DNA of 48,513 nucleotides from an uncultured Candidatus Saccharibacteria bacterium. Lineage in GTDB: Bacteria > Patescibacteriota > Minisyncoccia > Phycocordibacterales > DATGWK01. Below the pieces are notes generated by a model. That model did not search any database. It had not been told where the DNA came from and saw only the letters and a program-made list of their open reading frames with translations. The stretch lies in contig CAYHIR010000005.1 in assembly GCA_964356815.1 (NCBI GenBank), positions 1 to 48,513 of the forward strand, read 5' to 3'. A program made the position numbers and the translations under genes. Positions 11,345 to 15,322 of this stretch are shown here, in pieces (within the stretch, counting starts at the first letter, position 1; each line of letters begins with the position of its first letter).

Positions 11345-11434
11345 TTATCGGCGACGCTTTGTTGCTTTTTTCTTCGCCTTTGTCTTTCGCTTTGTAGTCT
11401 TGCGCTTGGTTGTGCGCTTTGCTTTTTTCTTCAT
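11345..11434 (-). CDS. Small Lys/Arg-rich basic peptide (histone-H1/protamine-like), 29 aa
   Basis: MKKKAKRTTKRKTTKRKTKAKKKATKRRR*, ATG to TAA, followed by the 11245-11280 terminator; below the ORF-track cutoff. Confidence 0.6.
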   Translation of the reverse strand: MKKKAKRTTKRKTTKRKTKAKKKATKRRR

Positions 11435-11640
11435 TTTTTTTGCGCGTAGAACGCGAATTATTGATAAGCTCGCACTTGTGTTGGATCGAAAAATAAAATC
11501 TTTTTTCTTTTATTTATTTCAACAAAGCCGAGAGAGTTTGTGGCCTACGACCATTACTAATTATGCGCTCAATTTGTTTTCAAAACAATAATTTTGCGCA
11601 CGCAAATGTGGATAACTAAAAAAATATTTTCGCGCGATGT

Positions 11641-12720
11641 TTACGCCGCGCGATTTTTTATTTTTTCATTACTCACCCACTCTACTTCTGGTTCTAAAAT
11701 TATTTTTGTTTTTTCTTTTACGATGAGTGCGATTGTCTCCGCGAAATTTTTTATATCGCGCGATGTTGCACCGCCACGATTCACAATAACAAGCGCTTGA
11801 TTTTCATATGTCGAAACTTTTTCTGTGCCGCGACCAGCAAGCCCTGCAATATGATCGATAATCCACGCGGCAGAAACTTTTAGCTTACCCCCACCCACCG
11901 AATGACCAGGCAAAAGTGGAAATTGCGCGCGAATTTCAGTGGCACGAGTCTCACTTATAATTGGATTCTTAAAAAACGAGCCGGCATTGGGTACAATTTC
12001 CGGATCGGGCAATTTTCGACGGCGAATGACGATGACTGCTTGGCGAACATCTTGATTTGTCGGCGCGGAAATATTGGCGTTTTCTGGAGAAAAATATTGT
12101 GCCAAATCTTTGTATGAAATATTTGGCCGCGCGGATTTTGCCAAACTTAAACAAAGAGCAATTTTTGTAATAATAAATTTTTTACCAGCCGGAGTTTTAA
12201 AAACACTCATCCGATAATCAAACTGACACTCATCGCGAGTCATTCGCACAAATTTTCCACTTTCAACATCAAAAACTTCGACCCATTCCAAAATATTTGA
12301 GAGCTCAACACCGTACGCGCCGATGTTTTGCACCGCCGCGGCACCCACGAGCCCTGGTATGAGTGAAAGATTTTCCAAGCCGCCCCAACCACGCTCAACA
12401 GTGTCGCGCACTAAGTCATCCCACTTTTCGCCGGCGCTCGCAATTACCAAACTTTTATCTGCGCCCGTATCCGCCGTTTCTACTGCTTCATACTCAATTC
12501 CCTTTTCAACTATTTTTATAACCACCGCATCGAACGGATCATCAGACACTAGCAAGTTTGAACCTGCGCCCAGAAAAAACATTGGCAAATTTTTTGCCTG
12601 CGCAAAAGCTACTGCCTCGGGCAGTTTTTTTGTGTCGGAAATAGTTATAAAAAAGCGTGCTGGCCCGCCGACTCTAAATGTCGTGAGCGAAGATAACGGT
12701 ACAGATTCTTGGATATCCAT
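11641..12720 (-). CDS. murB: UDP-N-acetylenolpyruvoylglucosamine reductase
   Basis: TTFRVGGPA, GAGSNLL, GLENLSLIPGLVGAAAVQNIGAYG, PNAGSFFKNP and LEPEV motifs. Start moved to ATG 12720 (MDIQ). Confidence 0.95.
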   Translation of the reverse strand: MDIQESVPLSSLTTFRVGGPARFFITISDTKKLPEAVAFAQAKNLPMFFLGAGSNLLVSDDPFDAVVIKIVEKGIEYEAVETADTGADKSLVIASAGEKWDDLVRDTVERGWGGLENLSLIPGLVGAAAVQNIGAYGVELSNILEWVEVFDVESGKFVRMTRDECQFDYRMSVFKTPAGKKFIITKIALCLSLAKSARPNISYKDLAQYFSPENANISAPTNQDVRQAVIVIRRRKLPDPEIVPNAGSFFKNPIISETRATEIRAQFPLLPGHSVGGGKLKVSAAWIIDHIAGLAGRGTEKVSTYENQALVIVNRGGATSRDIKNFAETIALIVKEKTKIILEPEVEWVSNEKIKNRAA

Positions 12721-12742
12721 GAAGTAAATTCCGCCCTGTCGC

Positions 12743-12797
12743 GGCCGCCGGCTGCGAGCTCCTAAACAAATGTCTATGTGAGTGCTAACCGGCGGCC
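12743..12797 (-). promoter_or_regulatory. GC-rich hairpin in the murB 5' leader
   Basis: GGCCGCCGG/CCGGCGGCC 9-bp stem ending 22 nt upstream of the murB ATG. Confidence 0.55.
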
Positions 12798-12934
12798 ATG
12801 GCAAAGCGCAATGATTTTCACTTCAAGGCGCGATCGGACCATTAAATGATAACAAAACTTCAAATATATAAACACACCCTATTCAAGAAATATTTAAAAA
12901 ATTATAAAAACCATACTCCGCCGCCGGCGAGACC

Positions 12935-12964
12935 AGAAACGCAAAACCCCGCCGAAGCGGGGCC
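12935..12964 (-). terminator. Intrinsic terminator with UUCG tetraloop
   Basis: CCCCGC-UUCG-GCGGGG then UUUUGCGUUUCU. Confidence 0.75.
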
Positions 12965-13012
12965 TTACGCAGACATTCGTTTGTTTGGGCTAGCGGTTGG
13001 CTAGCACTCACA
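12940..13012 (-). ncRNA. Candidate ~70-nt small RNA or attenuated leader upstream of murB
   Basis: Short non-coding interval between a consensus promoter and an intrinsic terminator; internal GCUAGC-CAACC-GCUAGC hairpin. Confidence 0.5.
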
Positions 13013-13018
13013 AGAGGT

Positions 13019-13047
13019 ATCCTAGCAGATTCGAGTAAAAATGTCAA
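13019..13047 (-). promoter_or_regulatory. Sigma70-type promoter
   Basis: TTGACA-N17-TAGGAT with TG-C extended -10. Confidence 0.7.
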
Positions 13048-13078
13048 GCCCTTGGTCAGTAGAGTTGTGCACACCTCC

Positions 13079-15322
13079 CTACGGATTCCTGCCCGCCTGA
13101 ATTTCTTTTATATAATAATCGGCTTGATTTTTGGTCGCCGGAATTATCTCACCGACACGGCGAAGCTCAGAAATGGCGGCTGGTCTGTTGCCTGCTCTCA
13201 AATAAGCAGCGGCTAAAGAAAAATAGTGCTGAGGATTTTCTGGATCGATTTTTATTCTCTTCTTAATAATCTCAGCGGCCCGAGAATACTCACCAACGGC
13301 AGAAAGAGCGATCAAAATTCTCTCCTCAGAGGCAATTTCTCTTTCTTCAAGATCGGCTAGCAAATAATCGGCGAGCTTTAGATCTTTGGCGTATATTGCG
13401 CCGATAGCATACATAACTTTTGCCTCACCAAACTCCGGCGCCGAGTCGTAAGCCATCTTTAATTTTTCTAGAGCCGCCTTTGGGTTGCCACTATTTATAT
13501 AGGCTGTGCCGAGTTCAAAAAAGATTTGCTGTTTTTTTGGCGAAGTTTCGAGAGCTTTTTCTAAAACGCTCACAGCGTCATCAAAACGCTCGAGTCGAGC
13601 CAACAAACTGCCGAAAAACAAAAGGTAGCGGGTATCGTTTGGAGTTTCGCTTATTTGAATTTCATATTGCCTGACCGCTTCATCTTGAAAAGCCTTGCGA
13701 GTCTCTGAAGAAACCCCGTCGGCTTGAAATTTATTTAGATTAAAAAACATTTGCTCGCGAATCTCTGGGTTGCCGAAAGTATTTAAATCGAGAGCTTTGT
13801 TGAAATTTGCGAGAGCAACCTCGGCAGTTAATTTTTGATCTCTTGAGGAAGCGATGGCATCTAGAAGCGTCCGATTGGCAGAAAGTGGTTTGATATTGAC
13901 GGTGTAAATCATAAAAATCATCGCCAAAAAGACTACTGGCACGAGTACCATTTGGGCCACATTTTTATTTTCAGCCACACTATTTAGCCAACCGATAGCC
14001 GCTTTGGATTTTGTTGAATCAAAATGGAAAAATGCGAGCAGAGAAAAAAGATAAATGTAGCCCATCAAATTGTCGAAAACGAAAATACTTTGGAATATAT
14101 AGCCGGCGATCAGACCAAGAAAAATCGCTTTTTCTTTTACACTAAGCGAACTGCGGAGAGTGTAGAAAACTAACGCCGCCAAAATGGCTAGGTATGAGAG
14201 AAGGCCGAGTAATCCGCCAGCGATTAGCCAATCGAGAAACGCATTGTGTGTGCGGTCGAACCAAGACTCTTGATTGAACATGGCCGGATTGTAGTGCTCG
14301 TTGAAAACATAATTGAAACCTTCCTGACCCCAGCCGAGAATCGGTCTCTCTTTAAAACCTTCAATTGCCATCGGCCAAACGAAATAACGGCCTTGAGATT
14401 TTATTTCGCTCGGTGATAGCGAAGCGAAGCGAGCGAGCACCGGACTTTTCTGCACAAAGTCAGAACCGCGAGCCAACCAAAATCCACCCACGAGAACCGC
14501 AAGAACGACCAGACCACCAATCGCAAACTTGCGGACTTTTTTATCCTGACGCTCAAAAATCGCAATAATGAGCGCGGTTAAAATTGCTCCGCCAACGAGA
14601 CCGAGAATCACGCCTCTACTAGCCGTGTTGTAGAGAATAGTGGTCTGCAGGGCGATTGCCACGAGATATAAATAGCGCGACCACGCAAAATCGCCGCCAT
14701 CGCGCGCACGGCCGCGTGTGCGGTCGTTGCGATCATTTTCATTTTGCCGCGGCGATCTTACAAAAAGAAAAACGGCGAAAAAGATATTGAAAAGCATGTA
14801 GACGGCCAAATAAATGGCGTTGCCCATCGTGCCGTCTAGGCGCACACCACCCTGATTGATAACCATTTTTCCTGCGAGCTGAAGGAAACCATAAAAACAC
14901 ATGATGATGCTCGCGATGACAGAAGTGTTTAAAAACACTCGCCAAAGTTTTTCGGTATTTAATACGCTACTAACCACCAAAAAATACATAAAAACGTGAA
15001 TAAGGGTCAAAAAACCTTCCATGCGTTCGTAATTACTCCAAAAACTTTTATATGGATTGATGCCAAAAAAGTCGGCCACACCAATAATGGCCACAAAAGC
15101 CGTCACTGCCACCAAAATCCAAGAGAAGCGCGGCAAAAAAGTGCGTTCCCGCACAGCGAGCAAAACCCAAAGCGCAAAAATAATTTCCACACCGATTCTA
15201 AAAGTGAAAGCTTTGCCAGTGATGAACGGAAAAAATTGCGAGTCGGTGACGATAAAAGGTATGAAGAGAACGGCGAGGAGGCCGGTGATGAGGGTGCGGC
15301 TAAGAATCTGTTTAACAGACAT
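13079..15322 (-). CDS. O-antigen ligase/polymerase-like (Wzy_C) membrane protein with C-terminal TPR domain
   Basis: About 12 TM segments, TASRG, RYFVWPMAIEGFKERPILGWGQEGF and DRTHNAFLDWL motifs, TPR-like tail. Start moved to ATG 15322. Confidence 0.85.
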   Translation of the reverse strand: MSVKQILSRTLITGLLAVLFIPFIVTDSQFFPFITGKAFTFRIGVEIIFALWVLLAVRERTFLPRFSWILVAVTAFVAIIGVADFFGINPYKSFWSNYERMEGFLTLIHVFMYFLVVSSVLNTEKLWRVFLNTSVIASIIMCFYGFLQLAGKMVINQGGVRLDGTMGNAIYLAVYMLFNIFFAVFLFVRSPRQNENDRNDRTRGRARDGGDFAWSRYLYLVAIALQTTILYNTASRGVILGLVGGAILTALIIAIFERQDKKVRKFAIGGLVVLAVLVGGFWLARGSDFVQKSPVLARFASLSPSEIKSQGRYFVWPMAIEGFKERPILGWGQEGFNYVFNEHYNPAMFNQESWFDRTHNAFLDWLIAGGLLGLLSYLAILAALVFYTLRSSLSVKEKAIFLGLIAGYIFQSIFVFDNLMGYIYLFSLLAFFHFDSTKSKAAIGWLNSVAENKNVAQMVLVPVVFLAMIFMIYTVNIKPLSANRTLLDAIASSRDQKLTAEVALANFNKALDLNTFGNPEIREQMFFNLNKFQADGVSSETRKAFQDEAVRQYEIQISETPNDTRYLLFFGSLLARLERFDDAVSVLEKALETSPKKQQIFFELGTAYINSGNPKAALEKLKMAYDSAPEFGEAKVMYAIGAIYAKDLKLADYLLADLEEREIASEERILIALSAVGEYSRAAEIIKKRIKIDPENPQHYFSLAAAYLRAGNRPAAISELRRVGEIIPATKNQADYYIKEIQAGRNP

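Follow-up and report, generated by a model that had tools for sequence, protein, structure and literature searches.

Comparative sequence evidence for a dedicated, previously undescribed pair of base-pairing small RNAs in Paceibacteria

The window considered here, by which is meant the whole 48,513-nt stretch of DNA that was analysed, belongs to a genome of 765 kb that is 94% complete. All genes around the finding lie on the minus strand, and from the upstream side they are the following:

15346-13079, minus strand: gene for a Wzy_C (O-antigen-ligase-like) membrane protein with TPR repeats, the upstream gene
11641-12720, minus strand: murB (UDP-N-acetylenolpyruvoylglucosamine reductase), with its ATG at 12720
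11345-11434, minus strand: Lys/Arg-rich ORF of 29 codons, between murB and secA
11192-8571, minus strand: secA

The gap leading from the Wzy_C gene to murB measures 358 nt and contains every feature of the initial annotation, which had proposed an undescribed cis-encoded sRNA, or else a long-range switch, controlling peptidoglycan precursor synthesis. Database records in which this RNA occurs carry the label Paceibacterota or Parcubacteria and comprise Taylor-, Yonath-, Zambryski-, Vogel- and Sungbacteria. On the far side of murB, a single DnaA box (TTATCCACA) is found at 11607-11615 on the minus strand, directly 3' of the murB terminator, and about 35 nt past this box there is a -10 box of the form CATAAT/GATAAT, followed by the 29-codon Lys/Arg-rich ORF before secA. 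Since both the box and the -10 element are kept across families, and even in another order (L008, L016, L035, L049, L075, L076, L089, L107, L079, L231), they suggest the presence of a DnaA-controlled promoter. A replication origin at the DnaA box was considered as well and rejected, because the GC skew is monotonic over the window.

The gap harbours two elements. The first one, termed sRNA1, has the following parts:

13019..13047, minus strand: sRNA1 promoter, with a -35 box TTGACA at 13047-13042, a 17-nt spacer and a TG-extended -10 box TAGGAT at 13024-13019
12935..13014, minus strand: sRNA1, a putative transcript of about 78 nt known from its sequence, the RNA running from about 13012
12999..13012, minus strand: block A of sRNA1, UGUGAGUGCUAGCC, at the 5' end, with the conserved core GUGAGUGC at 13011-13004
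12989..13005, minus strand: hairpin H1 of sRNA1 as predicted by folding, GCUAGC-CAACC-GCUAGC, overlapping the final 2 nt of the block A core
12971..12982, minus strand: block B of sRNA1, AAACGAAUGUCU, whose conserved core is its 3' seven nt, AAUGUCU
12935..12970, minus strand: intrinsic terminator of sRNA1, with a 14-bp stem, a UUCG loop and the tail UUUGCGUUU

The near-consensus promoter, strong and of the sigma-70 type, scores 10/12 and is the sole promoter-like site between 12300 and 13500, and a layout of the form cTTGACttttt...TGCTAnnnT recurs at a constant distance upstream of GTGAG in 68 relatives; because this distance is fixed, GUGAGUG can be taken as the 5' end of sRNA1. When folded, the 80-nt sRNA1 region (-36.8 kcal/mol, z = -4.8) is predicted to consist of a 5' single strand, hairpin H1, a single-stranded linker with block B, and the terminator, in this order, and the covariance model built here for sRNA1 (R1) matches it with 87 bits. 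The alignments of relatives place the H1 hairpin at an equal position with a varying sequence and length, and the 14-nt extension of block A beyond its core is particular to this genome. The terminator reads GCGUAAGGCCCCGC-UUCG-GCGGGGUUUUGCGU followed by UUU, its stem displays compensatory changes in the relatives' alignments, and it was skipped by the terminator scan only because the stem runs into the U-run. Both the promoter and the UUCG terminator are therefore present where the initial annotation had located them. In one relative (G032, L017:1139-1554), a segment of about 100 nt that includes the sRNA1 terminator occurs as three tandem repeats between sRNA1 and RNA2.

The second element, termed RNA2, lies between sRNA1 and the murB start codon:

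12727..12812, minus strand: RNA2, a stem-loop of 86 nt which in this genome constitutes the 5' leader of murB
12777..12790, minus strand: block A' of RNA2, GGUUAGCACUCACA, with the core GCACUCAC at 12785-12778
12764..12775, minus strand: block B' of RNA2, AGACAUUUGUUU, in the apical loop of free RNA2
12754..12763, minus strand: (U/A)GGAG-CUN-GC strand of RNA2, near-invariant, the internal partner of block A'

In RNA2, a lower stem of 13 bp and a GC stem of 9 bp are topped by an upper helix with an apical loop; the element has a minimum free energy of -45.4 kcal/mol, scores 78.8 bits with its own covariance model (R2) and shows compensatory changes in 21 of the 29 predicted pairs. The GC stem is formed by GGCCGCCGG (12797-12789) with CCGGCGGCC (12751-12743), and the loop that it closes holds both target blocks, so that the description of two adjacent targets in crossed order inside a GC-rich 9-bp hairpin upstream of murB is borne out. 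GGAG is invariant among 65 sequences; a small peptide encoded after it was considered and discarded, as none of the aligned sequences has a start codon at a usable distance. In this genome, 8 nt separate the base of the 22-bp stem from the murB AUG, in a linker that contains no Shine-Dalgarno sequence, and across 54 murB-linked loci the median distance is 11.5 nt, the linker being again usually devoid of a Shine-Dalgarno sequence. In about three quarters of the murB-linked loci, the stem base is less than 30 nt from the AUG and no terminator intervenes. Finally, about half of the loci possess a -10 box ending 7-11 nt upstream of RNA2's first base, which indicates that the RNA begins with its stem.

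The relationship between both elements resides in their sequence complementarity. Block A of sRNA1 (UGUGAGUGCUAGCC, 13012-12999) can pair with GGUUAGCACUCACA (12790-12777) at 14 of 14 positions, and block B (AAACGAAUGUCU, 12982-12971) with AGACAUUUGUUU (12775-12764) at 12 of 12, or 13 if extended, with one G-U in each duplex, exactly as initially annotated. The order of the blocks is crossed between the two RNAs, that is, circularly permuted and not mirror-symmetric. When sRNA1 was shuffled against the hairpin with its dinucleotides preserved, a run of at least 14 pairs arose in 31 of 5000 shuffles, and two runs of at least 12 in only 3 of 5000 (0.06%, a figure that concerns this window alone). 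A motif search found both target motifs together nowhere else in the 765-kb genome; RNA2 is thus the only bipartite target of sRNA1 in it, and matches to single blocks occur at chance frequency. In a seeded, genome-wide RNAduplex ranking of targets, the energies of which are uninformative because they ignore accessibility, the true partner RNA2 does not come first.

The evidence that carries the case is comparative and derives from cognate pairs of 65-67 genomes. In block A, 97.9% of cells are paired and five of the eight pairs have changed on both sides, whilst in block B 88.9% of cells are paired and six of the 12 pairs are doubly changed; for both blocks together, this amounts to 11 of 20 pairs doubly changed and 94.5% of cells paired, as compared with only 36-45% pairing when the partners are slid by 1-3 columns. 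None of 500 shuffles reached the observed covariation values, a statistic that ignores phylogeny. In block A, GUGAGUG is almost invariant. The core of block B, seven pairs long, is nearly always Watson-Crick and comprises up to four pair types, four being found at two positions. The apical loop of RNA2, of 13-15 nt, covaries accordingly with sRNA1. In some genomes, block B has been wholly rewritten and is nonetheless complementary, as in G074 (AAAGUAAACAUC with GAUGUUUACUUU), in G017 and in the unlinked pairs of G079 and G176. Cognate duplexes are also more stable than non-cognate ones (-23.2 versus -19.8 kcal/mol). The covariation in relatives that had been named as a check is hence confirmed for both blocks.

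As the blocks are inverted repeats when regarded as DNA, they might be operator half-sites, recombination sites or the remnant of an inversion, or they might simply have arisen by chance. Such explanations are extremely improbable. Mismatched cells in the pairing blocks comprise 73 G·U against 14 A·C, a type of mismatch that is workable only on the strand of the promoter and the terminator, which places the pairing at the RNA level and upholds the assignment to the transcribed strand made in the initial annotation. Moreover, the permuted block order lacks the mirror symmetry of such DNA sites, covariation extends to unlinked loci, and the chance probability is about 6e-4 for this window alone. 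The pair yields no plasmid or phage match and is present in one copy per genome, which also led us to reject a mobile-element origin. As judged from these comparisons, the sRNA1-RNA2 pairing is maintained by selection at the RNA level, and the two form a dedicated RNA pair that has co-evolved to base-pair at two sites, RNA2 being the one conserved partner of sRNA1.

How widely this pair is distributed became apparent from its relatives. A blastn search with the gap against 40 of them revealed two conserved segments, the promoter with sRNA1 and the hairpin, separated by an unconserved spacer of 45-230 nt; across families these segments are 75-92% identical, as opposed to 40-49% for the MurB proteins. 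In 301 genomes of the order, representing more than 117 families, R1 matches 218 genomes and R2 208 (about 70%), and R2 additionally matches 46 genomes from other orders of the class, where sRNA1 adjoins RNA2 and block B is different but complementary. With sRNA1 accepted at E up to 1e-4, both RNAs are present in 165 genomes, sRNA1 without RNA2 in two, RNA2 without sRNA1 in 43 (19 of which have a weak sRNA1 match) and neither in 91 (about 30% of the order), counts that vary with how sensitive the covariance models are at strict filter settings. The odds ratio of co-occurrence is 175, with a p-value inflated by relatedness. Second R2 matches within a genome, considered as possible further targets, were rejected since they represent the reverse strand of the same hairpin. 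Two deviations in copy number were seen: G055 carries two sRNA1 copies (C3:71392 and C1:53281) and one RNA2, and G051 has two identical sRNA1/RNA2/murB matches (C1 and C31), in what looks like a duplicated contig. Searches for sequencing runs containing this organism returned DNA metagenomes only. One run of unknown kind (X18) corresponds to a 9.2-kb DNA contig of a relative with 90-95% identity, in which both blocks are found and the spacer is replaced.

The arrangement of the two genes is decisive for how they may interact. sRNA1 and RNA2 are located on opposite strands in G046, G087, G157, G052, G160, G183, G290, G283 and G030, 2 kb apart in G229, and on different contigs in nine genomes (G211, G129, G079, G176, G094, G162, G205, G115 and G241). 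In the latter nine, RNA2 accompanies murB in seven cases and precedes secA in G079 and G176, whilst sRNA1 stays beside the Wzy_C-TPR gene in six. Pairing is retained in all of these genomes with divergent, distant or unlinked genes, about 18 in number, including the double swaps of G079 and G176, and must therefore act in trans. A related observation is that, in several families (L071, L100-L107; G046, G229, G087, G157, G052, G160, G183, G290, G283), only the sRNA1 gene, of about 120 bp, is inverted, which places it in convergent orientation to the Wzy_C-TPR gene and in divergent orientation to RNA2 and murB.

These arrangements bear directly on the idea that read-through of the sRNA1 terminator, which is conceivable, generates one long transcript whose leader, about 290 nt in length, adopts a pseudoknot in cis. 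In this genome and most relatives, both elements do share a strand, with 45-230 nt between them. However, a single cis-folded transcript cannot be the general mechanism, because opposite strands, different contigs or a separation of 2 kb are found with the pairing intact; besides, the spacer is unconserved, the terminator stems are strong and conserved, and the -10 box immediately before RNA2 in about half of the loci speaks for a start of its own. This reading is accordingly highly improbable, and the long-range switch within one transcript postulated initially is not supported. As for the undescribed cis-encoded sRNA, the undescribed sRNA gene with its promoter and terminator stands, but the attribute "cis" has to be given up, as the genes are unlinked or divergent in those genomes. 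At the sequence level, sRNA1 shows two traits of trans-encoded sRNAs, namely a transcription unit of its own, with conserved promoter and terminator, and a pairing under selection, as reflected by the covariation of both blocks.

A further feature emerges from the upper helix of RNA2, in which GC-A-CUC-A-CA is opposed to UG-GAG-CUN-GC, with 97-98% of cells paired. The nucleotides of this helix are those of block A', which are also complementary to sRNA1. Two genomes display triple covariation at this site: in G094, a C-to-U change in RNA2 is matched by G to A in sRNA1 and by G to A in RNA2 itself, and in L040 a G-to-A change in RNA2 is matched by C to U in both sRNA1 and RNA2. Such changes indicate, at the level of the aligned sequences, that block A' has two mutually exclusive partners, either the internal UGGAG..GC strand or the 5' end of sRNA1.

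Taking together the two genes, their co-occurrence, the covarying pairing in trans and the mutually exclusive helix, all of which can be followed through the genomes compared, we infer transcription of both RNAs, an order of events and a regulatory output as follows. Single-stranded AAUGUCU in block B of sRNA1 would first kiss the apical loop of RNA2 at AGACAUU, establishing a 7-bp contact, whereupon block A (GUGAGUGC), the free 5' end of sRNA1, would invade the upper helix and take GCACUCAC away from its internal partner UGGAG..GC. The product would be a bimolecular complex resembling a four-way junction, with crossed helices and the invariant GGAG strand released. In the leader form, this refolding would most likely alter translation or the fate of the murB mRNA, in the direction of either activation or repression; possible routes are access to an occluded start region, GGAG serving as a standby site, or cutting of the long stem by RNase III. 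The reading towards which we lean, albeit with modest confidence, is therefore that of a dedicated sRNA switch acting on a leader, here controlling murB, and made up of two separately transcribed small RNAs that base-pair with one another.

Whether murB is the purpose of the pair can be approached through genomes with a different gene content. Of the 301 genomes of the order, 72 lack the MurB C-terminal domain, most of them at least 90% complete; murB has thus been lost or replaced repeatedly. RNA2 is kept in 42 of these 72 genomes, the odds ratio between RNA2 and murB being only 1.9; G039, for instance, has no murB at all, in G051 RNA2 follows murB, and in G578 the gene behind RNA2 is a different one. 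A canonical terminator lies within about 5-50 nt behind RNA2 in at least 17 loci, which identifies it there as a free-standing small RNA. These copies still covary with sRNA1 and keep the long lower stem and the invariant UGGAG-CUN-GC, and the most diverged, fully compensated block B sequences (G074, G114, G017, G079 and G176) all belong to free-standing RNA2 genes. In addition, a direct effect on ribosome access is not obvious, because the partner of sRNA1 is the top of the hairpin rather than the arm covering the start region. Control of murB is thus plausible in this genome but, going by the comparison, cannot be the whole story. The same applies to the control of peptidoglycan precursor synthesis proposed initially: with the stem base so close to the AUG, it is plausible here, but as the purpose of the pair it is weakened by the murB-less genomes and the free-standing loci.

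A serious, though less likely, alternative is therefore that the pair is an autonomous RNA device in two pieces, either a functional particle or a functional sRNA (RNA2) switched by sRNA1, and that its position at murB reflects inherited gene order together with an opportunistic use as a leader. Beyond the retention of RNA2 without murB and the free-standing loci, which have a -10 box and a terminator of their own, what speaks for it is that the strongest compensated variants of block B and the kept lower stem and UGGAG strand are found in such free-standing genes, that sRNA1 and RNA2 are gained and lost together, and that the free covariation of block B argues for a single partner and not for many mRNA targets. 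It is at odds with the short, terminator-free distance from stem to AUG in most murB-linked loci and with the fact that RNA2 accompanies murB where the two genes have become separated; furthermore, no protein partner or activity can be named, and the share of the order without either RNA excludes an essential housekeeping role. In its most general form, this would be a class-wide, murB-independent device of Paceibacteria in which one RNA is the circularly permuted antisense of the other and the partner swap leads to a crossed-helix complex exposing GGAG-CUN-GC. Independence from murB would follow from the persistence of the pair in the 42 murB-less genomes and as free-standing genes, and we regard this formulation as tentative, ranking it clearly below the leader switch.

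Free-standing RNA2 genes could also be explained if RNA2 were a decoy, or sponge, titrating sRNA1 away from its true targets, which would be other mRNAs recognized through a single block. The near-invariance of GUGAGUG in block A, reminiscent of the seeds of multi-target sRNAs, would fit this proposal, but it is equally accounted for by the constraint of three-way pairing. Genomic matches to single blocks do not exceed the chance level and none joins both blocks, and the core of block B changes along with RNA2, which many targets would forbid. A sponge is hence improbable, and a switch acting on its dedicated partner, in this genome on the murB leader, is still the reading preferred here.

When considered in relation to known systems, the pair is hard to accommodate. 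CopA-CopT of R1, RNAI-RNAII of ColE1 and Sok-hok are plasmid systems composed of an antisense RNA and a target stem-loop, in which antisense RNA and target are transcribed from opposite strands of one piece of DNA and are fully complementary. Like these, the pair described here is a one-to-one relationship directed at a leader stem-loop, in which pairing would start with a loop contact of about 7 bp and continue with the free single-stranded end, giving rise to crossed helices as in a four-way junction and possibly to a substrate of RNase III. At the sequence level, the topology and the conserved 7-bp core are compatible with kissing and subsequent formation of a four-way junction. In contrast to plasmid antisense RNAs, sRNA1 and RNA2 are separate genes on the same strand or unlinked, they occupy a chromosomal, class-wide locus, and they share only two complementary blocks, of 8-14 and 7-13 nt, in permuted order, instead of the full complementarity to an opposite strand that defines cis-antisense RNAs.

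A second group for comparison is formed by trans-encoded sRNAs acting on a structured 5' leader, such as DsrA, RprA and ArcZ, which in E. coli act on rpoS; these bind the arm in which the ribosome-binding site is sequestered, make use of Hfq and address several targets. sRNA1 resembles them in being a separate gene with a promoter and a terminator and in pairing imperfectly with a hairpin of the leader by which the start region is occluded; it differs in that it pairs with the apical loop and upper helix, has a single partner and possesses a seed that covaries, and RNA2, unlike the rpoS leader, also exists as a free-standing RNA. CopA-CopT-like antisense pairs of plasmids and DsrA-like sRNAs that target leaders would thus, by analogy, be the nearest counterparts in mechanism, and the pair falls outside both definitions since it is not cis-antisense, does not pair with the occluding arm and lacks multiple targets. 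Nor is it a riboswitch or a pseudoknotted leader, in which all partners are on one transcript, given the arrangement in the approximately 18 genomes mentioned above. Finally, RNA2 has in common with the T-box (RF00230) that a leader reads a trans RNA via two separated contacts; however, its ligand is not a tRNA, and there is no specifier loop, T-box sequence or terminator/antiterminator alternative. A T-box was rejected, as RF00230 gave no match and sRNA1 is not a tRNA.

Searches for known families lead to the same picture. With Rfam 15 at gathering thresholds, only three tRNAs in the window reach the threshold, and when E values of up to 10 were allowed for the region 12600-13200, the sole notable match was the terminator part of RsmY, at 22.8 bits against a threshold of 57, which falls on the sRNA1 terminator. 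The Rfam search suggested initially as a check therefore returned no family that explains the element, and a full-text literature search found no published description of the pair; the sRNA1/RNA2 pair is previously undescribed. SRP RNA and 6S RNA were contemplated for RNA2, which is a long hairpin near secA in a group where neither RNA was found. Both were rejected, as RF00169, RF01854 and RF00013 do not match RNA2, its loop covaries with sRNA1 and it is absent from about 30% of the order. As a side result, 13 genomes (G000-G013) gave no Rfam match for small or large SRP RNA or for 6S RNA, nor a Pfam match for the Ffh M domain (PF02978), whilst control genomes were positive in both searches; either the signal recognition particle has been lost or has strongly diverged in the lineage, or the first-look filter misses it.

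The bearers of this pair are ultra-small groundwater bacteria, the Paceibacteria of the candidate phyla radiation, a group with tiny genomes and few recognizable regulators, for which a literature search found no characterized regulatory small RNA. Against this background, an RNA-RNA pair is now available with unusually strong comparative support, which comes from about 200 of the 301 genomes of one order plus other orders, from intermolecular covariation that extends even to unlinked genes, and from evidence for a defined partner-swap switch. Here, the two RNAs precede murB, a cell-wall gene that is essential. Owing to its small size, the pair can be tested in full in vitro or in a laboratory host, an advantage with uncultured organisms, and its persistence in genomes without murB makes its real function a directly testable question.
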